DNA of 64,000 bases from Gammaproteobacteria bacterium (GTDB lineage Bacteria; Pseudomonadota; Gammaproteobacteria; Ga0077536). Positions 1-44,399 of this stretch are shown here, piece by piece. How positions within the stretch are numbered: position 1 is the first letter of the stretch; each line of letters opens with the position of its first letter. Both the position numbers and the translations under genes were made by a program. The stretch lies in the NCBI GenBank assembly GCA_050247235.1, contig JBFWUN010000022.1, forward strand, positions 1,016-65,015, given 5' to 3'. The notes beneath the pieces are model-generated. The model searched no databases and was not told the DNA's origin. It was given only the letters and a program-made list of their open reading frames with translations.

Positions 1-665
1 ATGTCCCAGATGGGGGGCGTGACGGAATCGTCCACGCAGGCTGCGGTCGACTGGCCGACCTCGCCGAACGTCGCGCCGGTGGACAGCGCGTGGCGCAGCA
101 CGCCGGACTGCGGCAGTCCGTCGTCGACCTTCAAATCGAGTTCGCGCATCACGTTGACCGGGATGCCGCGGCCGAGCACGAGGTTCAGCCGGTCGGTCGG
201 CGTGGCTTCCGTGTCGTAGTAATCGTTGGAGCGGAACAGCACGAGGAACCCGTTGAAGGCGTTGCGCGGTGCGAGATCGGTGTCCGTTGCGGTGGGCGCA
301 GCGTCCCCGCCGACGAACGCGCCCTGGATGAAACCTGCGCGGGACAGCTGTTCCCACAGCGCGAGCGCTTCCGTCCAGTCGGTGGTGTGCCGATCGAGTC
401 GTCCGTTGCCATTGCCGCCCGTCGTGACCCCGGGAATCGCCTGCGCCGCGTTGGCGGCCGGCCAGTCCCCCGGCACCTGCCGGAAGCGATCGACGAAGCC
501 GTAGTACGCGGCCTGCACGCCGGAGTTCTGGTCCGCGATGTTGCGGACCCGCGCGCTCGTGATGAGTTCCTGGCCTTTCAGGATGCCGCCGAGCAGCAGG
601 CCGATGATGACGAGCACAATTGCAATTTCGACCAGGGTGAAACCTTGCTGACGGCGAGTGGACAT
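1..665 (-). CDS. Type IV pilin-like protein with a prepilin N-terminal cleavage/methylation motif; the 3' end runs off the window
   Basis: Absent from the ORF track because no stop codon lies in the window. The reverse complement of 601-665 reads ATG TCC ACT CGC CGT CAG CAA GGT TTC ACC CTG GTC GAA ATT..., giving MSTRRQQG|FTLVEIAIVLVIIGLLLGGILKGQELITSARVRNIADQNSGVQAAYYGFVDRFRQVPGDW. That is a short basic leader, a Gly, then an F-T-L-x-E hydrophobic helix. The frame stays open down to position 2 (more than 221 codons) with G/C-rich third positions. Confidence 0.85.
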   Translation of the reverse strand, partial: MSTRRQQGFTLVEIAIVLVIIGLLLGGILKGQELITSARVRNIADQNSGVQAAYYGFVDRFRQVPGDWPAANAAQAIPGVTTGGNGNGRLDRHTTDWTEALALWEQLSRAGFIQGAFVGGDAAPTATDTDLAPRNAFNGFLVLFRSNDYYDTEATPTDRLNLVLGRGIPVNVMRELDLKVDDGLPQSGVLRHALSTGATFGEVGQSTAACVDDSVTPPIWD

Positions 666-705: not shown

Positions 706-721
706 TGCAGGATCCGCGCCA
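706..721 (-). promoter_or_regulatory. Candidate sigma54 (-24/-12) promoter for the pilin gene
   Basis: The minus strand reads TGGCGCGGATCCTGCA against the consensus TGGCACG-N4-TTGCW. The GG and GC dinucleotides have the correct spacing, and 10 of the 12 specified consensus positions match. It lies 40 nt upstream of the pilin ATG at 665. An 8-nt inverted repeat sits upstream, TTTTCCCG at 749-756 and CGGGAAAA at 796-803, and could be an enhancer site. A sigma54 enhancer-binding protein is encoded in the same locus (16696-18132). Confidence 0.55.
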
Positions 722-817
722 AGGGCCGGCGCGCTGATCCGGCGAGGGTTTTCCCGGCGAGCACGGCTCGGACTGTCGTCGATCGGTCACTCTGTCGGGA
801 AAATGACAACGCCTCGC

Positions 818-1552
818 TCAGCGCGGCGCGCGGGACGCCGCGGCGGCTTCGAGCGCCGCGAGCCGCCCGGTGAGCCACCGCTGTTCGTGCGGGTCGGTGA
901 CCTGGCCGCTCGCGAGCAGGCCGCCCAGCAGCACCTTGGCGGCCTCGATCTCGCCCATGTCCTCCAGCACGAAGATCTCGAGCTGCCGGGCCCAGGAGGG
1001 GATCTCCGGCGCATCCGCCCGTGCGAGCCGCCGCGCGTAGTCCCGCGCCAGCGGCAGGTCGTGGAGCCGGTGCCGCGCCACGAAGACCGCGTGTGCCAGC
1101 CACGGCCAGCGCCGGGCCGGGTCCGCGGCGAACGCGCGGGCGACGAAATCGAGCATCCGGCGGCTGCGCGCCGCCTCGGGCACCTCCGCGTACAGCCGGC
1201 TCGCCGCGAGCAGCGGGTATTGCGCGGCCGGGTCGAGCGCGAGCGACAGCGCAAGCCAGTCTTCCAGCCGCGCGTAATCGAGCGCCGCGAACGGCAGCGA
1301 CACGCCGGCCTGGTCGTCGAACGCCTGCAGCCACAGGCTCACGATCTTCGCGGCGACGGGCAGTTCGCCGAGCGCCGCCACGCGTGCCACGGACGGCGCC
1401 GGCGGGCGCGGCAGCGCGGCGGCGCGGGGGCGCGTCGGCGCGAGCCCCGCACGCCATCCGGCGTGCAGCACCAGCAGCAGCGGCAGCGCGACGCGCAGGC
1501 TCACCGGCACGTCACGCCACGGGCGCTGCGCAACCCGCGCGAACACGTTCAC
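818..1552 (-). CDS. Hypothetical protein with an N-terminal hydrophobic anchor or signal and a helical, TPR-like Leu/Ala/Arg-rich body
   Basis: 244-aa ORF with a GTG start and strong G/C third-position bias. N-terminus reads ...VSLRVALPLLLVLHAGW. Its start overlaps the stop of the upstream permease gene as GTGA at 1549-1552. I recognise no family motif. Confidence 0.6.
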   Translation of the reverse strand: MNVFARVAQRPWRDVPVSLRVALPLLLVLHAGWRAGLAPTRPRAAALPRPPAPSVARVAALGELPVAAKIVSLWLQAFDDQAGVSLPFAALDYARLEDWLALSLALDPAAQYPLLAASRLYAEVPEAARSRRMLDFVARAFAADPARRWPWLAHAVFVARHRLHDLPLARDYARRLARADAPEIPSWARQLEIFVLEDMGEIEAAKVLLGGLLASGQVTDPHEQRWLTGRLAALEAAAASRAPR

Positions 1553-2322
1553 GCGGCGCGTCGCTCGCAGTCGACCATGCCGATCACCACGAGCACCGCC
1601 GCGAAGAGCACGGTCTCAATGGCAACGAACGCGAGCTCCGCGGCGTCCGGCGCGGCGCGCAGCAGCCACGCGCTCGGCGCGAAGCGCGCGAGATCCGGCA
1701 AGAGGACATGGAGCCCGCGCAGCACGCTGCCGGCAGCCTCCGCGAACGGCGAGACCCCCGCGAGCAGCGGATCCTCGGCAAGCCACACCAGCGCCTGCAG
1801 CGAGCGGCACAGCACGTAGAACCCGCCGACCGCGAGGCTCGCGAAGGCGAAATGGCCGAGGCTCACGGCCGCGGTCAGCGCGGCGGCGCCGACCAGCACG
1901 AGCTCCCCCGCGAGTGCACCGGTCCAGGCGGCGGCCGCAGCCGGCGCGCACCACGCGAACAGCGGCAACCCGGCGAGCGCCGCGGCAAGCGTCGTGGCGA
2001 GCGCCCCGCCAGCGAATTTCCCCGCGAGCCAGGTCCGGCGCGCGAGCGGGCGCGACAGCAGGAGGTCGCGCAGGCCGTCATCGATCTCGCGCACCACGTT
2101 CTGCACGACAACGAGCGCGGTCGTCGCGACCAGCCCGAGCCGCACGGCGGCGGCATAGAACGCGATCCGGAACTCCGCGCTCTCGGTGATCGCGAGGCTG
2201 GCGCCGAACGCGGCGAGCCCCCATGCGAGCGCCACCACGCCGAGCACCGCGCGCGCGAAGTGGCTGCGCACGAACTCGCGCACGGTGAGCTGCACCAGGC
2301 TGTTAAACTGTCGAGCGCGCAC
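1549..2322 (-). CDS. ABC-2-type permease-like polytopic membrane protein with no adjacent ATPase
   Basis: This is the C-terminal 257 codons of the 637-aa track ORF, with a GTG start at 2322 (VRARQFNSLVQLTVREF...). It has about six hydrophobic segments and the motif REIDDGLRDLLLSRPLARRTWLAGKF. That resembles the E-x-G-T-x-E-LL-x-P-x-x-R-x-x-x-x-GK motif of NosY/GldF-type ABC-2 permeases; compare FAGERRNGVLPLWYAAPVRLTALVLGKF in the permease at 42724-43473. The part of the ORF upstream of 2322 is antisense to the kinase gene. Confidence 0.6.
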   Translation of the reverse strand: MRARQFNSLVQLTVREFVRSHFARAVLGVVALAWGLAAFGASLAITESAEFRIAFYAAAVRLGLVATTALVVVQNVVREIDDGLRDLLLSRPLARRTWLAGKFAGGALATTLAAALAGLPLFAWCAPAAAAAWTGALAGELVLVGAAALTAAVSLGHFAFASLAVGGFYVLCRSLQALVWLAEDPLLAGVSPFAEAAGSVLRGLHVLLPDLARFAPSAWLLRAAPDAAELAFVAIETVLFAAVLVVIGMVDCERRAA

Positions 2323-2373
2323 GCGCCGATTGTACGGCGCGGCCACGAGCCCCGGCACCCTGTGGCGAACCCC

Positions 2374-4053
2374 ATGTTCGACGTTTCCGTCCTGCTCGAC
2401 CGGCGCCGCGATCACTGGGTGCTCGCGGGCATGCTGTGGCTGCTGCATGCCGCGCTGCAGGCCGCCCCGGAGAGTCCGTTCGCGCGCGCACTGATGACGG
2501 CCCATCTCGGACTCTTCTTCCTGTGGCAGCCGCTGTGGCAGCGCGAACAGCGCCTGGACCGTGGCGCCGTGGTAATCATCCTCGCGTTCGTCGCGACGTT
2601 CGTCGGCACCCTGAACGGCGGCTGGCTGTTCGCGTGGGTCATCCTGCTGATCGGCATCGTCGCCGGGCGTGCGCGCAGCGTGCGGCGCGAACGCCTGGCC
2701 TACATGCTGGGACTCGCCTGCCTGGTGTCCGAGCTGCTGCTCGGCGTGGTGCCGCTGCTGTTCGCCACGGGCGCGGTGGCGCCCGCGGTGGCGGAGGCGT
2801 TCCGCTTCGGGCTTTACGTCGTGCCCGGCGCGATCGCGCTGATCCCGGCGGCGACCGTCGCCCGCCAGACATTTCCGATCGACTTCCTGCGCGGGATCAT
2901 CGTCGCGCTGCTGACCGCGCTGCTCGCGCTCGGCAGCGTGCAGCTCACGCAGACCCGCGCGCTCGACTACGCCACTGCACTGTTCGTGTCGCTGCTTGCG
3001 GTGGCCGCGTTCCTGGTGTTCATCAGCTGGCTCGTGACCCCGACCGCCGGCACCGGGCTTGGCGCGCTGTGGGAGAAATCGGTGCTCAACATCGGCACGC
3101 CGTTCGAGGCCTGGATGGCGAGCCTCGCAGCGCGCGCGGCGGACAGCCCGGGCCCGGACTCGTTCCTGCGCGCCGCGCTCACCGAGCTCGTCGCGACACC
3201 CTGGATCGCGGGTGCCCGGTGGGAGGACGACGAAGGCGCCCATCTCGCAGGGGTCGAGACCCCGCGCGACACGCGCCTCGCGGCGGGCGACCTCGCGGTC
3301 ACCTTGTACCTCAACCATGCCCCCGGACCGACCCTGCTGCTGCACTGCCGGCTGCTGATCGACACGCTCAACCATTTCCACGCCGCGAAGCGACGCGAGC
3401 AGGAGCAGGCGCGCCAGGCGCACCTGCAGGCGATCTACGCGACCGGCGCGCGCCTGACCCACGACATCAAGAATCTCCTGCAGTCACTGAAACTGCTCGC
3501 CACCGCGGCGACCCGCGCGGGGCGTGAAGCGGACTCGCTGGAACTGCTGCAGCGCCAGCTGCCGGTGATCGTCCAGCGCCTGCAGTCGGCGCTCGACAAG
3601 CTCAACCAGCCGACCGCGGAGCCGGGCGCGACGGCGCCCATCGCGGCGTGGTGGGCACAGCTGATCGAGCGCCACGCCGCGCAGGCCGTCGCGCCAACCG
3701 CCCACCTGGACCACCCGGCGCGCGAGGTGCCGACGGATGTGCTGGACAGCATCGTCGAGAACCTGCTCGACAACGTCCGCCAGAAAGCGGCGGGACAACC
3801 GGACGTGACGCTTCACCTCGCGCTCGACGACCGCGCCGGCCGCCTGCGGATCTCGGTCGGTGATACCGGCGCGGCGATTCCCGAGGCGATCGCCCGCCAG
3901 CTGTTCCGGCAGGTGGTCCCGTCACGCGACGGGCTCGGCGTGGGGCTCTACCAGGCCGCGCAGCTCGCGCGCCACGCGGGATTCGAACTGCGTCTCGCGT
4001 CCAACATGCCGGGCGACGTGCGCTTCGAACTCGCGGACATGCGCCCCGCGTGA
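2374..4053 (+). CDS. Multi-TM sensor histidine kinase with PrsK-like/PilS-like architecture
   Basis: This is the last 559 codons of ORF 1021..4053, starting MFDVSVLLDRRRDHW. It has about 7-8 N-terminal hydrophobic segments. Kinase motifs present are the H-box ATGARLTHDIKNLLQSL, the N-box IVENLLDNVRQKA, G1 VGDTGAAIP and G2 GLGVGLYQAAQLA. The first 450 codons of the track ORF are Arg/Ala/Pro-rich shadow sequence antisense to 818-2322. Confidence 0.8.
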   Translation: MFDVSVLLDRRRDHWVLAGMLWLLHAALQAAPESPFARALMTAHLGLFFLWQPLWQREQRLDRGAVVIILAFVATFVGTLNGGWLFAWVILLIGIVAGRARSVRRERLAYMLGLACLVSELLLGVVPLLFATGAVAPAVAEAFRFGLYVVPGAIALIPAATVARQTFPIDFLRGIIVALLTALLALGSVQLTQTRALDYATALFVSLLAVAAFLVFISWLVTPTAGTGLGALWEKSVLNIGTPFEAWMASLAARAADSPGPDSFLRAALTELVATPWIAGARWEDDEGAHLAGVETPRDTRLAAGDLAVTLYLNHAPGPTLLLHCRLLIDTLNHFHAAKRREQEQARQAHLQAIYATGARLTHDIKNLLQSLKLLATAATRAGREADSLELLQRQLPVIVQRLQSALDKLNQPTAEPGATAPIAAWWAQLIERHAAQAVAPTAHLDHPAREVPTDVLDSIVENLLDNVRQKAAGQPDVTLHLALDDRAGRLRISVGDTGAAIPEAIARQLFRQVVPSRDGLGVGLYQAAQLARHAGFELRLASNMPGDVRFELADMRPA

Positions 4054-7188: not shown

Positions 7189-7817
7189 CAGTCGACTCCC
7201 GTGCCCGCGGGCGGCGCCAGGGTGAACCACCGCAGCACGCACTCGGTCTGCAGCGCGGCGGTCGGGCCACCGGCCGTATCCGCGGGCCGGCTGTCGGCGC
7301 GCCGCAGCTCGCAGCGCTCCACGCTGAACAGGCCTTCGCCGCGCGCCTCGAGGTGCGCGAACAGGCGCGCCAGATCGCCCTCGTGCAGCAGCGCCGCGCT
7401 GATTTGCATCTCGCTGACACGGAGATCGAACGGGGCGCTCGCGAGCGGCACCTCCGGCGTGTAGGCCTGCTGCGCGTCGATCCGGTAGTCGAGCGCCGGG
7501 AGTCCCAGCGACCCGCTCGCCGTACGCACCGCCTCCACCCAGCTGAGCCGCCGCTCCGGGCCGATCACGCCACGTGCGTGCAGTGCGCGGAACGCCGGGT
7601 ACTGCGCTTCGATGATCCGTTCCTCGTCATCGACGGCGAGGTACTGGCGGCTGGCGGCCCGGAACTGCGCGAAGTTCGCGGTGTACTCCGCGTGCATGCC
7701 GCGCCAGAACCAGTCGCTGCTCCACAGGAGCAGGCCCGCGATCACCACGCTGACGGCGAACACGCCGAGCGCACCGCGCAGCACCCCCCACTCAGCCCTG
7801 GCGCGCGGCATGCGCAA
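7188..7817 (-). CDS. Bitopic inner-membrane pilus assembly protein, PilO/MshJ-like
   Basis: 209 aa with a single N-terminal TM segment (GALGVFAVSVVIAGLLLW) and a periplasmic domain of about 170 aa. It sits directly after the PilM-PilN fusion gene and overlaps it by 26 nt. Confidence 0.5.
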   Translation of the reverse strand: MRMPRARAEWGVLRGALGVFAVSVVIAGLLLWSSDWFWRGMHAEYTANFAQFRAASRQYLAVDDEERIIEAQYPAFRALHARGVIGPERRLSWVEAVRTASGSLGLPALDYRIDAQQAYTPEVPLASAPFDLRVSEMQISAALLHEGDLARLFAHLEARGEGLFSVERCELRRADSRPADTAGGPTAALQTECVLRWFTLAPPAGTGVD

Positions 7818-9387
7818 CCCCCAGCACGATGCGCAACGTGAAACCCGCGGCAGGGTCGGCGGCGCCCGCGGAGCCGGTCACGCTGGCGTCCGGATCGAGA
7901 TCGAGCGGATAGCGGGTCACCGTGACGCTCCGCACGTCCTGCTGCTCGCGCAGGCGCGCCGCGAGCGCGTCGATCGTCGCGAGCGCCCCGCGGAAGTCGC
8001 CGTCGAATGCCGCGAGGTGCCCCTCCACGTCGGTAATCGCGTAATACGCGTCATCGGCCGCCGCGGGCGCGGGCGGCTCGGGTGTCCCGGGCGCCGGTTT
8101 CCCGTCCGGGTCCGGCACGAACGAGCGCTGCCACGTGAGGCGATCGAGCACGATCGCGGGCGCGGATTCCAGCGCGGCGCCGAGCAGCCGCCACGCGGGC
8201 AGCGGCGACGCGCGCAGCGACACGAGCGCATCCGCCGTGCGCACCGCGGTATCGATCGCACTGGCGTCCAGCGGCGTCGGCGGCAGGTCCCGTCGCGCCA
8301 GCGCGAGCCGCTCCTGGTAGAACACGGACTTCTGCGCGGCGTCGAGCGCCTGCTGCTTCAGCCCGACACCCTCCACGAAGCGCAGCGCGCTCCACCCCGC
8401 GCTGCCGACGATCAGCAGCACGCTCGCGGCGAGCAGCGCGATCTTCCATTGGTGCAGCAGGTGAAAACGCGTTTCCTGGCGCTGCGCGTAGTGCACGGAG
8501 GGCGGCGCATCGAGCAGCAGCTGCGCGAACAGCGCGTCCGCGTACGGCGACACGGACTCCGCCGGCAGGCCGAGACGCGGCGCGAGATCGGCGGTGTCGA
8601 CCAGGAAGTACTGCTCGCCGTCCGAGCTTCGGCAATGGCGCTCGAGTTCCTGCAGCAGTTCCCCGTGACTGAAGAGGTAGATCGCAAGCGGGCTGTCGCG
8701 CGAGACGAGCGCCAGGCTGTTCAGGTAGCGCCTGAGCTTGGCGAGCTCCGCGAGCACGTGATTCGCGTAAGGCACCGAGCCCAGCCGCGGCATCTGCGCG
8801 AGGCGGCTGATCTTGAGCTGGCCGTCGCGGAAGAACGTCTGTCGCAGACCGCTGACCTGCTGCACGCTGATGAACAGCACGTTGCTGGCAGTCGCCTTCA
8901 CCGCCTTCAGCAGCGCCGCGCTCAGGATCGGCACCGAGTGGATCCCGGCCAGCGGCACGCGGTGCTTCAGGATCTCCGCGATCCATGGCGCCAGGGTCTC
9001 GGGCTTGGTCAGCGCGGTCAGCAGCACGCGATCGTCCCGCCGTCCCTCGCGCTCGCGGCCCTGCGCCAGCGCGAGGCAGTACGGCGTGCCGCGGAACAGT
9101 CGCGCGTACTTGCGGGCCAGCACCGCGCGGCGGTCGCCTCCGCGCACGTGCGGGATCGTGTCCTGGCGGTATTCCTCCTCCACCACGTCCACCAGCACGT
9201 GCAGCGGCGCCGCGCCCGCCTGCTCCAGGTAATGGGAGAAGGCGCTCCAGCCTCCTTCGCCGGCCGCGAACTCGTAAGCATGCGTGAGCCGGCCGCCGTG
9301 ACCGGTGTACAGCAGCGCGCGATCGGCGGCGACCAGCAGCACCCGGGCTTCGCCGCGCAGCACGTTCATCATGCGCGCCTCCCGCAC
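7792..9387 (-). CDS. PilM-PilN fusion-type assembly protein, MshI-like
   Basis: 531 aa. A cytoplasmic region of about 320 aa is followed by one TM segment (WKIALLAASVLLIVGSAGWSAL) and a periplasmic region of about 180 aa. This is the layout expected for MshI-type PilM/PilN fusions. The call rests on architecture and context, not on a motif. Confidence 0.5.
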   Translation of the reverse strand: MREARMMNVLRGEARVLLVAADRALLYTGHGGRLTHAYEFAAGEGGWSAFSHYLEQAGAAPLHVLVDVVEEEYRQDTIPHVRGGDRRAVLARKYARLFRGTPYCLALAQGREREGRRDDRVLLTALTKPETLAPWIAEILKHRVPLAGIHSVPILSAALLKAVKATASNVLFISVQQVSGLRQTFFRDGQLKISRLAQMPRLGSVPYANHVLAELAKLRRYLNSLALVSRDSPLAIYLFSHGELLQELERHCRSSDGEQYFLVDTADLAPRLGLPAESVSPYADALFAQLLLDAPPSVHYAQRQETRFHLLHQWKIALLAASVLLIVGSAGWSALRFVEGVGLKQQALDAAQKSVFYQERLALARRDLPPTPLDASAIDTAVRTADALVSLRASPLPAWRLLGAALESAPAIVLDRLTWQRSFVPDPDGKPAPGTPEPPAPAAADDAYYAITDVEGHLAAFDGDFRGALATIDALAARLREQQDVRSVTVTRYPLDLDPDASVTGSAGAADPAAGFTLRIVLGVAHAARQG

Positions 9388-13851: not shown

Positions 13852-15537
13852 TCAGCGGGGGCGTGCGGTGGGAGTCGCATCTTCGCTCAGGTAGCGCTCG
13901 TAGTCCTTGAGATCGGTCTCGATATTCGGATCGCCCACGATCACCGGCCGCAGGAAGATCACCAGTTCGGTCTTCTGGTTGCGCACCTCGTCGACGTCGA
14001 AGAACGCGTCGCCGATGATCGGCAGGCGCGCCAGCCCCGGGACCTCCCGGTTGCCGCTGCGCGCCTCGTCCTGCATCAGCCCGCCGAGCACGCCTACCTG
14101 CCCGTTCACGAGCTTCAGCACCGACTCCATCTCGCGGGTGCGGATGATGGGCACGGTGTTCGTGATCTCGGCGTCTCCCACCCCGTTCAGCTGGCTCGCG
14201 AGCCGCGGGCCCGGGTCGATCGCGTCGCCGATCTTCTGCGAGATGGTCGGCCGCACGGTGAGCGTGACTTCCTGGTTGGCGGAGATCTGCGGGGTTACCG
14301 CCATCACCAGTCCCACCGGCACCGAGTGCACTTCGGTTTCGACGAACGAGCGCCCCTGCGCGTTCAGCGTGGAGTCCGTGGTGGTCACGTCCAGTGTGAA
14401 GTACACGAGCTCTTCCACCACCTTGAGCAGCGCGGTCTGGTTGTTGATCACCATGAGCCGCGGGCTCGACAGCACCTTGGCGTCGCCGAACTCGCGCAGC
14501 AGCCGGATCGTCGCCTCCACCAGCTTGCCGCTCGCGTCCGGATCGCGATAGCCGAACGTGAACGCCGACACCGCGTTGTCTATGACCCCGTCGGTGACGG
14601 CGCCGAGCAGGTTCTGGTTGAAGCCGAAACCGGCCCGATCCGCGTCCAGCACGATTCGCCAGTCCACTCCCGACTGGTACTGGTCGTTCAACGAGACCTC
14701 CACGATGGTCGCTTCGATCAGCACCTGGCGGCGCGCGTTCGCGAGCACCTGGTCGATGAACTTCTGGATGAGGGCGTGCTGTGCCGTCGTCGCTTTCACC
14801 GAGATCACGCCCGCCTCGGCGTTCACGAGCAGGTTGGGCGACCCCGGCGCGCCTTCGCCGCCCGGCGCATCCTCGCCGAGAATCGACCGGATGTTCGTCG
14901 TCAGCGTGTCCCAGAAGCGGTTGGTCGAGCGCGAGTTCACCCGCGTCAGTGAGCTGTTCGCGCTGCCCGCGCCCTGCCGGCCGCCGCCGCCGCGGCCTTC
15001 TTCCTGCGCGCCACCCTCGCCGGTGGTCGCCACCTGGGTCGCGATGCTGACCGTGGTATCGGTGTCGCGCGCGAGGTTCACGTAACCCACCTCGTAGTTG
15101 CGGAAGAACGGCGCATCGGGCTCCACGAGGATGGTGCCGCCTTCGATCCGGTAGCGCAGGCCGGCCTGGCGCGCCACGCGATCGAGGATCTGCGGCAGGG
15201 TCTGTTCGATCGCATTCAACGTGACGTTGCCGTCGATCGCGCCCGCGATGTCGACGTTCATCGCCGCGTCGCGCGCGAGCGCGAACAGGAGCTCGCGCAC
15301 CGGCACGTCGTTGACCACCACGGTGTAGCGCTCGGCATCCGGGATCGGCTGCGGCGGCGGCAGGTAGCTCGCCTGCGGCACCACGTCCGGGATCCCGGGG
15401 TCGGCCGCCACGGTGTCCGCGCGCTCGAGGTGGCCGTCGGAATCCGGCAGCGGCGGTGGCGCCAGGCCGGCGCAACCGGTGAGGAGGCCGAGCACGAGTC
15501 CCAGGCGCGTGGTGCGGCGCATGCGGGCGCGCGTCAT
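13852..15537 (-). CDS. mshL: Secretin of the GspD/PilQ family, MshL-like lipoprotein
   Basis: Start at Met102 of the track ORF: MTRARMRRTTRLGLVLGLLTGC|AG, which is a lipobox. The C-terminal secretin signature is ...NNQTALLKVVEELVYFT...GGLMQDEARSGNREVPGLARLPIIGDAFF...TELVIFLRPVIV. An ATGA overlap joins it to the upstream ExeA-like gene. Confidence 0.9.
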   Translation of the reverse strand: MTRARMRRTTRLGLVLGLLTGCAGLAPPPLPDSDGHLERADTVAADPGIPDVVPQASYLPPPQPIPDAERYTVVVNDVPVRELLFALARDAAMNVDIAGAIDGNVTLNAIEQTLPQILDRVARQAGLRYRIEGGTILVEPDAPFFRNYEVGYVNLARDTDTTVSIATQVATTGEGGAQEEGRGGGGRQGAGSANSSLTRVNSRSTNRFWDTLTTNIRSILGEDAPGGEGAPGSPNLLVNAEAGVISVKATTAQHALIQKFIDQVLANARRQVLIEATIVEVSLNDQYQSGVDWRIVLDADRAGFGFNQNLLGAVTDGVIDNAVSAFTFGYRDPDASGKLVEATIRLLREFGDAKVLSSPRLMVINNQTALLKVVEELVYFTLDVTTTDSTLNAQGRSFVETEVHSVPVGLVMAVTPQISANQEVTLTVRPTISQKIGDAIDPGPRLASQLNGVGDAEITNTVPIIRTREMESVLKLVNGQVGVLGGLMQDEARSGNREVPGLARLPIIGDAFFDVDEVRNQKTELVIFLRPVIVGDPNIETDLKDYERYLSEDATPTARPR

Positions 15538-16676
15538 CGGGTCTGCGCGCCGGGCTCGCGCGATGGCGTGCCCGCGGGGGCGCCGATGATGCGATCCAGC
15601 CGATCGATCGCGTGCAGCAGCGACGGCAGGTCGGGCGCCGTCTCGTGCGCCGGCGGGGGCGCCTCGTGCGCTGCCAGCGCCCAGCCCGTCTCGGCGAGAT
15701 CGGCGAGATCGGCGTAGCGCGCGGCTGGCGCCGGGGCATCCGCCGCGAGCGGGGTGCGGGCGAGCGCCTCGCGCGTGATTTCCGGCGCCAGCAGCGCGGC
15801 GACGGCGAGCACGCCGATCACACCGGCGGAGGCCCACCACAATCGCCGCCAGGAGAACGCGCGTGCAGTCGTGAACTCGCTGTCCCGCGCGGCGCGCGCG
15901 ATGTGTCGCGGCGTCACGCGCGGTGCGCCGCTCGAGTACGCCGCGAGCAGCGCCTTGTCGGACAGCACGTTGATCCGCCGGAGCAGACCGCGCGAATGCC
16001 GCGCGAGCGCGCGGATCGCGCCGCGGGTGAACAGTTCCGGACCCCGGTACCCGCTCGCGTGCAGCCGCGTGTTGAGGTAGTCACGGATCTCACCCGCGCC
16101 GAACGGCGGCAGCTGGAAGCGGTACGTGATCCGCTCGTTGAGCTGCCGGATCTCGTGCCGGGCGAGCTTCGCGTCGAGTTCCGGCTGCCCGAACAGCACG
16201 ATCTGCAGCAGCTTGTCATGTGCCGTCTCCAGGTTGCTCAGCAGCCGGATCTCCTCCAACGTCGCGAGCGGCACGCACTGGGCTTCCTCGACGAACATCA
16301 CCACGCGACGGTCGTCGGCGTGCTTCGCGAGCAGGTAGTCGTGGAGCTGGTGCAGCAGCATCGGCTTGGTCGCCCCGTCCGGCACCACGAGCTTCAGCTC
16401 GCCGGCGATCGCCGGCAGGATTTCATCCGGACCGAGGTTCGGGTTGGCGAGGTAGATCACCTCGCAGTTCGCGGGCAGCTCGCGCTCGAGCATCCGGCAC
16501 AGCATGGTCTTGCCGCTGCCCACTTCGCCGACCACCTTGACGATGCCTTCGCCGCGCGACACCGCGTAGAGCAGTGCATCGAGCACGGCGCCGCGATTGC
16601 CGCCGGGGAAGAACAGGTCCGGGTCGGGCGTGATCCGGAACGGGGACTTGGAGAATCCGAAATGATGGCAGTACAT
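15534..16676 (-). CDS. mshM: ExeA/GspA-family AAA ATPase, MshM-like
   Basis: MYCHHFGFSKSPFRITPDPDLFFPGGNRGAVLDALLYAVSRGEGIVKVVGEVGSGKTMLCRML carries the Walker A motif. VVMFVEEAQ is Walker B-like. There is a C-terminal TM segment. The RBS GGGAAGGA lies upstream. Confidence 0.85.
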   Translation of the reverse strand: MYCHHFGFSKSPFRITPDPDLFFPGGNRGAVLDALLYAVSRGEGIVKVVGEVGSGKTMLCRMLERELPANCEVIYLANPNLGPDEILPAIAGELKLVVPDGATKPMLLHQLHDYLLAKHADDRRVVMFVEEAQCVPLATLEEIRLLSNLETAHDKLLQIVLFGQPELDAKLARHEIRQLNERITYRFQLPPFGAGEIRDYLNTRLHASGYRGPELFTRGAIRALARHSRGLLRRINVLSDKALLAAYSSGAPRVTPRHIARAARDSEFTTARAFSWRRLWWASAGVIGVLAVAALLAPEITREALARTPLAADAPAPAARYADLADLAETGWALAAHEAPPPAHETAPDLPSLLHAIDRLDRIIGAPAGTPSREPGAQTR

Positions 16677-16695: not shown

Positions 16696-18115
<1,420 letters not shown>

Positions 18116-18132
<17 letters not shown>

Positions 18133-43473: not shown

Positions 43474-44399
43474 GCGGATGCCGCCCGCGGCACGTGATCG
43501 CGCGTGACTTCCAGGAACGTGCGCTCCAGGGTGGAACGCCCGGTTGAGATCTCGCACAGGTTCCAACGTTCGCGCGCGGCCGCGGCGATGAGCCGCGCGA
43601 GCGCGGCGTCCGGATCCGCCGTCACGAGGTCGTAACCGCCATCCGGCAGCCCCTGCACGTGGACATCGCCGAGCGTGGCCTGCAGCGCGGTCAGCGGCGG
43701 CGGCGATTTGAACGCGATGCGGACCGCGCGTGGCGCGGCAGCCGGGTCGGCGTCGTAGACGATACGCCCTTCGTGGAGGATCGCGACCCGCGAGCAGGTA
43801 CTCTCTGCTTCGTTCAGCAGGTGGGTGGACAGCAGGACCGCGTGTTCGTCGCGCAGCGCGCGCACCAGTTCGCGGACCTCGCGGATCTGCGCGGGATCGA
43901 GCCCGACGGTCGGCTCGTCCAGGATCAGCACGGCAGGTTCGTGCACGATCGCCTGCGCGATCCCGACCCGCTGCTGGAAGCCCTTGGAGAGGTTGCGGAT
44001 GACGCGCGTGCCCACGTCCTGCAGGTGGCAGCGTGCCCTGGCACGGGCGACGCTGGCCGCCACGCGCGCCGCCGGGACGGCGTGCAGGCGGGCGCAGAAC
44101 GCGAGGTACTCGTCGACCGTCGCATCCGGGAACAGCGGGGGGATCTCGGGCAGGTAGCCCAGGTGGCGTTTCGCGGCGAGCGGCGCGCGCGCCAGATCGC
44201 AGCCGTGCAGGGTGACCGTGCCCCGGTGTGGCGCAAGCACCCCGGCGAGCATCCGCAAGGTGGTCGATTTGCCGGCACCGTTCAGGCCGAGCAGGCCGAG
44301 GACCTCTCCGCGTTCCAGCCGCAAGGTGACATCCTCCACCGCCACCCGCGCGCCGTACCGCCGGGCGAGGTGTTGCGCGATGAGGAGCGGCTCGGACAT
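43470..44399 (-). CDS. ABC transporter ATP-binding protein, ABC-2/GldA-like
   Basis: 309 aa with Walker A GLNGAGKST, signature LSKGFQQR and Walker B VLILDEPTVGLD. Confidence 0.9.
   Translation of the reverse strand: MSEPLLIAQHLARRYGARVAVEDVTLRLERGEVLGLLGLNGAGKSTTLRMLAGVLAPHRGTVTLHGCDLARAPLAAKRHLGYLPEIPPLFPDATVDEYLAFCARLHAVPAARVAASVARARARCHLQDVGTRVIRNLSKGFQQRVGIAQAIVHEPAVLILDEPTVGLDPAQIREVRELVRALRDEHAVLLSTHLLNEAESTCSRVAILHEGRIVYDADPAAAPRAVRIAFKSPPPLTALQATLGDVHVQGLPDGGYDLVTADPDAALARLIAAAARERWNLCEISTGRSTLERTFLEVTRDHVPRAASA

Follow-up and report, generated by a model that had tools for sequence, protein, structure and literature searches.

The stretch of DNA considered here (the window) comprises 64,000 nucleotides (nt) of contig JBFWUN010000022.1 (C22:1016-65015), from the genome of a gammaproteobacterium that is assembled in 152 contigs (GCA_050247235.1). 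Near its start, on the reverse strand, lie two overlapping genes of a candidate ATP-binding cassette (ABC) system in a type IV pilus cluster. The first of them, at 1549..2322, encodes a 257-amino-acid (aa) permease, predicted to be of the ABC-2 (type V) fold, and runs from a GTG start at 2322 to a TGA at 1549-1551. The second, at 818..1552, begins with a GTG at 1552 and encodes a 244-aa accessory protein which is named X244 in this study. At the junction (...GCG TGA / GTG AAC...) the stop and start codons overlap as GTGA, which would couple the translation of the two genes. The gene of the major pilin follows on the same strand; it takes up 1..665 of the window and in full C22:973-1680 (window -42..665), and encodes 235 aa from an ATG at 665. 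A sigma-54-type -24/-12 element, TGGCGC-N5-CTGCA, was read from the sequence upstream of it, at 706..721 (-). On the other side of the permease gene, across a divergent gap of 51 bp (2323-2373), the gene of a polytopic histidine kinase of 559 aa starts with an ATG at 2374 and extends to 4053 on the forward strand. A first-pass annotation of the window had already described the membrane open reading frame (ORF) with its ABC-2 hallmark, its overlap with the 244-aa frame, the short divergent gap and a sigma-54-driven pilin gene just downstream. All of these were recovered, the hallmark as REIDDGLRDLLLSRPLARRTWLAGKF at residues 78-103 of the permease and the promoter as a prediction.

Both GTG-start frames had been taken as genes, and this view is borne out. 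Their composition is of the coding type, with a GC content of 0.91-0.93 at third codon positions (GC3) against 0.53-0.54 at second positions (GC2), and large homolog families exist for both the permease and X244. The N-termini of the permease homologs line up with the GTG at 2322. That the two frames are artefacts of high GC content was rejected on the basis of the codon-position GC and the conservation at the protein level, whereas long ORFs that overlap them in other frames, for example 1021..4053 (+), are ordinary artefacts of that kind. A scan of positions 1-2600 gave no sigma-70 promoter site, and one weak terminator-like hairpin (824..809) that is within chance expectation.

It had been claimed that the permease is an orphan with no ATPase gene adjacent and that the nearest ABC ATPase is 41 kb away. 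The distance is correct within the window, where the only ABC ATPase lies at about 43755-44390, some 41 kb from the permease. On the contig, however, a 250-aa ABC ATPase with a GTG start is encoded at C22:214-966 (-), which is window -801..-49, directly after the pilin gene and 49 bases before window base 1. The permease looked like an orphan because the window begins inside the pilin gene, which cuts off the ATPase; an orphan-gene call made near the edge of a window needs to be checked against the contig. The pilin stop codon is at C22:973-975, and the GTG of the ATPase is found 6 nt past it, on the same strand as the permease and X244. The protein matches PF00005 with an E value of 2.4e-21 (77 bits, cut-off 25). 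Its best NCBIfam matches are DrrA, GldA and NodI, all of which are partners of ABC-2 permeases. It has a Walker A motif (GLNGAGKST), a signature motif (YSKGMAQK), a Walker B motif with the catalytic glutamate, LLVLDEPMSGLD (LDEP), and an H-loop (SSHAL), and these motifs are at least 90% conserved among 56 orthologs. Thus the locus encodes a complete three-part ABC system that, judged from sequence, is probably active. The next gene, immediately downstream of the ATPase (MFDLHPGFARALLETLPGGVAFIDRHGRVQW..., C22:1-140 (-), some 0.9 kb ahead of the window), is cut off by the end of the contig; its first residues resemble the beginning of a PAS-type sensor protein.

The genes of the ABC system are set in a cluster of the mannose-sensitive haemagglutinin (MSH) class. 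Pfam was run on ten cluster proteins encoded between 4061 and 18132, with the ORF at 15534-16676 left out, and five of the ten gave no match. According to these searches the cluster encodes an MshE-type ATPase with an MshEN domain, a GspF-type platform protein, a tetratricopeptide repeat (TPR) protein, prepilin-type pilins and a sigma-54 response regulator (16696-18132). A pilus assembly gene at 7792-9387, orf7792, served as the marker of the pilus genes in the co-occurrence analysis given below.

The gene order was compared in 100 related loci, a few of which represent the same contig fetched twice. All 20 loci fetched as relatives show the order permease, X244, pilin and ATPase, the ATPase being present where the contig allows, and the block adjoins the divergent kinase, a minor pilin, a protein of about 680 aa and assembly genes. 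The same order beside pilus assembly genes was observed in most of the 80 loci from named genomes. The permease gene lies directly upstream of X244 in 93 of 95 loci, and the gap between them is mostly -4 to +12 nt (96 loci). A pilin gene follows within 3.5 kb downstream in 71/74 loci and an ATPase gene within 5.5 kb downstream in 42/66; upstream, a minor pilin is encoded in 69/82 loci and a divergent kinase in 65/82. Permease-X244 pairs without pilus genes were not seen in any of the 100 loci. The ATPase was also sought in 14 whole genomes, mostly ones without an ATPase gene after the pilin gene. One outstanding ortholog was found in 13 of the 14, on the same contig (E 1e-49 to 1e-60, 41-48% identity, the next-best match being about 1e-33). 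In two of these, both Undibacterium genomes, it follows the pilin, and the other 11 orthologs are located 12-20 kb upstream. Four of these distant regions were fetched, and in every one the same pilus cluster opens with the ATPase gene; in three it stands directly before the sigma-54 response regulator gene. In Sulfuricella (L122) the ATPase gene precedes a homolog of orf15534, and a regulator-like gene comes after X244. With the ATPase ortholog at the head of the cluster in the four distant regions, all three genes of the ABC system belong to the pilus cluster in both gene orders, and the permease is not an orphan: its ATPase is encoded either after the pilin or, in the Burkholderiales order, at the other end of the cluster. 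In that second order another ABC ATPase gene, divergent and with 27-30% identity, was observed beside the pilus-linked one (L119:17059-18593, L120:17559-19037, L121:740-2284 and L122:516-2389).

The presence and absence of these genes follows that of the pilus genes. Among 41 relatives X244 occurs once per genome in 23, the permease gene is single-copy in 24, and the permease occurs in the same genomes as X244. X244 and orf7792 are found together in 21 of the relatives and are both missing from 16, while each occurs alone in two (Fisher p = 3.6e-7). Among the four discordant genomes, G001 looks like a case of contig truncation, and the same is assumed for others among them. In one related genome of 97% completeness (G004, locus L026), X244, the permease, the pilin and the ATPase are present, no match to orf7792 was obtained at E <= 1e-10, and of the 680-aa protein only the part from residue 238 onwards aligns; the pilus cluster of this genome may be partly degraded or rearranged. 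The first-pass annotation had supposed that the pair could be a non-standard accessory of the pilus locus that might be co-conserved with the pilus genes. This agrees with the co-occurrence found here and with the position of the pair between the minor and the major pilin genes in nearly all of the 100 loci. Relatives of X244 were found in at least 561 genome stretches, counting one genome per species. Among the carriers are Burkholderiales, Gallionellaceae, Chromatiales, Thiogranum and Thiohalobacter, with cultured strains represented by Sulfuricella sp. T08, Undibacterium sp. Di24W and U. danionis CCM 8677. In an evenly drawn sample of the class, a single copy of X244 was found in 39 of 301 genomes, or 32 of 270 genera. 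Because the genes lie in or at the edge of the cluster in two different orders, are single-copy and are gained and lost with the pilus genes, the three-part ABC system is very likely a dedicated accessory of the MSH-class type IV pilus locus.

About six transmembrane (TM) helices and an N-terminal amphipathic helix are predicted for the permease. Pfam scores remain below the gathering thresholds (ABC2_membrane_2, E 0.002, 18 bits against 27.2; ABC2_membrane_3, 17.2 against 31.6; ABC2_membrane_6, 13.1 against 22), and NCBIfam gave no match for this protein. A family profile built from 40 permease sequences (A2) was run against the PDB sequences and matched PmtD with an E value of 5e-5 over positions 4-167, and NosY with an E value of 0.04. 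The AlphaFold2 model of the permease has a mean predicted local distance difference test score (pLDDT) of 94.4 and a predicted TM-score (pTM) of 0.91. In a Foldseek search with this model NosY was the best match (E 6e-5, TM-score 0.60-0.73), followed by ABCG5/8, ABCA4, PmtD and CcmB. The model agrees with a type V fold of six TM helices, which has an amphipathic helix at the N-terminus and re-entrant helices between TM5 and TM6. On account of the profile matches to PmtD and NosY and of a confident model which best matches NosY, the permease is assigned, at the level of the model, to the type V (ABC-2) fold. The earlier ABC-2 assignment is therefore upheld by profile and fold, though not by Pfam at its own thresholds. 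The REIDDGLRDLLLSRPLARRTWLAGKF stretch would lie between TM2 and TM3 of the model, where type V permeases bear the helix that contacts the ATPase. The extracytoplasmic loop between TM5 and TM6 (LLPDLxRF..WL) is strongly conserved.

X244 gave no match in Pfam or NCBIfam at E <= 1. At least 2709 homologs were found, and the named ones are all called hypothetical; they fall into 733 clusters at 50% identity, with the members listed being mostly about 240 aa in length. The AlphaFold2 model (pLDDT 92.9) consists of one TM helix (residues 17-35), a proline-rich linker and an all-alpha, TPR-like solenoid. Conservation is much higher in the soluble domain than in the TM anchor. Foldseek retrieved only generic TPR proteins with this model (best E 0.075, TM-score 0.36-0.43), and the sequence profile of the family matched only designed consensus-type TPR proteins (CTPR) among the PDB sequences, weakly, at E 0.018. 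X244 had been described as helical and TPR-like. The description fits the shape of the model, but the TPR matches are weak and none comes from Pfam or NCBIfam; X244 is TPR-like in shape and is not demonstrably a member of the TPR family. The X244 family thus has no Pfam entry, no NCBIfam entry and no solved relative.

The pilin carries the N_methyl motif (Pfam, E 5e-8) and is the best-conserved protein of the locus, with 70-88% identity in most relatives, where the ATPase, the permease, the kinase and X244 reach 30-65%. Rapid evolution is usual for major pilins, and the conservation of this 235-aa protein for that reason recalls the pseudopilins of type II secretion systems (T2SS). The strict sigma-54 pattern was present in 24 of 88 upstream regions of related pilin genes, in most of those 52-68 nt before the pilin start, while it occurs in 3.5% of random 200-nt windows. 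The sequences thus support a promoter of the sigma-54 type for only a part of the family. In about 15 of the 100 related loci, the window not being one of them, a gene for a membrane-bound class III adenylate/guanylate cyclase of about 435 aa was observed between X244 and the pilin on the opposite strand (for example L016:7806-9116, L018:5358-6662, L019:5577-6893, L021:7732-9018 and L028:9349-10698). It reads divergently from the pilin promoter region and hints at an input of cyclic nucleotides into pilin expression in part of the family. ORFs on the same strand in these inserts of 1.5-2 kb between X244 and the pilin were rejected as antisense artefacts of the cyclase gene.

Several explanations of the association have to be weighed. 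The pair had earlier been suggested to be a signal-input module for the kinase. In its fuller form this idea gives the ABC module a sensory role alongside the divergent kinase, comparable to the flux sensing of Bce-type systems: the transporter would report the load of pilin in the membrane, and the kinase would set the sigma-54-dependent transcription of the pilin gene. The kinase gene is indeed divergent from the permease gene across 51 bp here and is placed in this way in most of the loci that were compared; a sigma-54-type pilin promoter and a sigma-54 regulator are both present in the locus. The kinase itself has a HATPase_c domain (E 7e-10) and a large membrane domain without a recognised sensor domain, and its C-terminal half resembles PrsK with an E value of 2.8e-14, far below the cut-off of that family. 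However, four genomes of the window's genus (G004, G007, G008 and G012, 74-97% complete) have no kinase ortholog genome-wide at E <= 1e-30 and retain the permease, X244, the pilin and the ATPase. In several Burkholderiales/Undibacterium loci a kinase-like gene, with a partial match only, is found on the other side of X244. The permease moreover is a six-TM, NosY-like protein and not a 10-TM protein of the FtsX/BceB type, and the partner kinase is not obligate, both of which set the module apart from Bce-type systems. Because these four genomes keep the module without the kinase, the module is not an obligate sensor of the kinase, the signal-input suggestion is weakened, and a sensory partnership is regarded as quite unlikely. 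In the kinase-less loci L026, L031 and L032 the permease, X244, pilin and ATPase genes come directly after the minor pilin gene.

The pilus link could also be real but indirect, if the ABC system exports or flips a molecule other than pilin which the pilus needs, such as a small peptide, or a glycan or lipid with which the pilin is modified. Transporters of the ABC-2/type V kind typically move glycans, lipids, drugs and peptides, and the nearest matches of the present proteins are DrrA, GldA and NodI for the ATPase and NosY, PmtD and ABCG for the permease. Yet no glycosyltransferase, oligosaccharyltransferase or peptide-precursor domain was seen among the ten cluster proteins scanned with Pfam, five of which had no match of any kind, and the conserved partner has a TPR-like shape, a type of fold that is usually tied to the binding of proteins or peptides. 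A non-pilin substrate of this kind appears distinctly improbable. That an unrelated transporter has come to lie beside the pilus genes by chance is highly improbable. Other genes separate the ATPase from the permease, and ABC ATPases are common, with about 30 tblastn matches in this genome, but the linkage is kept in two gene orders and in some 30 families of the class, and the presence and absence of the genes follows the pilus genes.

It is rather probable, in our opinion, that a single three-part ABC-2 (type V) system is made up of the permease, X244 and the ATPase and that it acts on pilin or on pilus biogenesis. A dimer of the permease and a dimer of the ATPase would make up the motor. 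X244, held by its one-helix anchor, could present the TPR-like domain in the periplasm and act as an adaptor or coupling partner, much like NosD in its work with NosFY. The pilin and the ATPase would be co-transcribed from the sigma-54 promoter, and therefore the activity of the transporter would rise with the supply of pilin. The target of the system could be pilin embedded in the membrane, or else the assembly of the pilus at the inner membrane, and extraction, delivery or clearance of the hydrophobic pilin helix are possible roles. This favours the suggestion, made in the first-pass annotation, of an accessory for the processing or export of pilin, on the grounds of gene context and analogy. 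That the substrate itself is pilin is given somewhat less than an even chance.

Some points weigh against this reading. The permease and X244 on the one hand and the pilin and ATPase on the other are probably separate transcripts; X244 and the pilin are separated by 152 bp in the window, and in about 15 loci the cyclase gene is placed there on the opposite strand. The positive-inside bias that would place the domain of X244 in the periplasm is weak (lysine plus arginine 2.35 against 1.5 in the flanking residues). Transporters of the NosY type, and ABC-2 transporters in general, handle many substrates, and the substrate need not be pilin. A bolder form of the proposal is that the ABC system is a second ATP-driven motor of the pilus, working on the pool of pilin in the inner membrane, with X244 as the pilin-binding adaptor, and that it extracts, hands over or clears the pilin helix. 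We consider this form fairly unlikely. If true, ABC-assisted handling of pilin would be a widespread and overlooked step in the biogenesis of type IV filaments, and it would explain the PilGHI system of Myxococcus xanthus that is discussed below. More remotely, it is possible that the 235-aa 'pilin' forms a pseudopilus and that the ABC transporter feeds a small cargo into a two-step export resembling the T2SS.

The comparison with known systems leads to PilGHI of M. xanthus (UniProt O30384 for PilG, O30385 for PilH and O30386 for PilI). An ABC transporter of Myxococcus was reportedly shown by Wu and colleagues in 1998 to be needed for type IV pili. To our knowledge the mechanism of PilGHI is still unexplained and the system has been treated as a peculiarity of myxobacteria. 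A literature search for pilus-linked ABC systems returned only the work on Myxococcus PilGHI. PilG, PilH and PilI are reported to be required for pili and for the export of PilA (PMC3724824; PMC3924187, TC 3.A.1.144.5), and they are, in this order, an accessory protein, an ATPase and a permease no shorter than 250 aa, with genes beside pilA (PMC5544727; PMC3924187). Denise et al. surveyed type IV filament systems and, using guilt-by-association, reported no further systematically associated proteins (bioRxiv 10.1101/576694).

Other relatives are instructive for single parts of the module. NosDFY(L) of Pseudomonas stutzeri (PDB 7o0y, 7znq and 7qba) provides the best fold match of the permease (TM-score 0.60-0.73, about 20% identity, full length), and there too a small dimeric type V permease works with a periplasmic protein of its own, whose gene lies alongside. 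The partner NosD, however, is a beta-helix and not a TM-anchored, TPR-like protein, and the system matures nitrous oxide reductase, which is unrelated to pili. PmtCD of Staphylococcus aureus (PDB 6xjh and 9q1y) gives the best profile match of the permease (E 5e-5) and is among the fold matches too. It has been proposed to export amphipathic, hydrophobic helical peptides from the membrane (PMC9974410), and could by analogy serve as a mechanistic model for the handling of the N-terminal helix of a pilin. It differs in that it is Gram-positive and two-part, has no TPR accessory and moves peptides of 20-45 aa, as against pilins of 235 aa. The MSHA locus of Vibrio cholerae (mshH-Q) shares with the present cluster the MshE-type ATPase with MshEN domain, the GspF-type platform, a TPR protein and the prepilin-type pilins. 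The canonical Vibrio locus is not known to us to contain an ABC transporter, X244 or a sigma-54 kinase/regulator pair.

The likeness to PilGHI, compared by architecture only, is that of a three-part ABC system whose genes adjoin the one for the major pilin within a type IV pilus cluster. In Myxococcus the parts are the extracytoplasmic accessory PilG, the ATPase PilH and the permease PilI, and the same set of an accessory protein, an ATPase and a permease of about 250 aa is found here beside the major pilin gene as far as the gene arrangement goes. The two differ in the phylum of the host and in the arrangement, which is pilA-pilG-pilH-pilI in a type IVa pilus cluster in Myxococcus, whereas here the order is permease-X244 / pilin-ATPase, or the ATPase is at the far end of an MSH-class cluster. 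The novelty lies in the setting of a pilus-associated ABC system within an MSH-class cluster, in the split arrangement of its genes and in an accessory family that lacks annotation. Because cultured carriers exist in Undibacterium and Sulfuricella, the question is open to bench work. The window thus adds a three-part ABC module, analogous to PilGHI, that is built into an MSH-class pilus cluster outside the myxobacteria.

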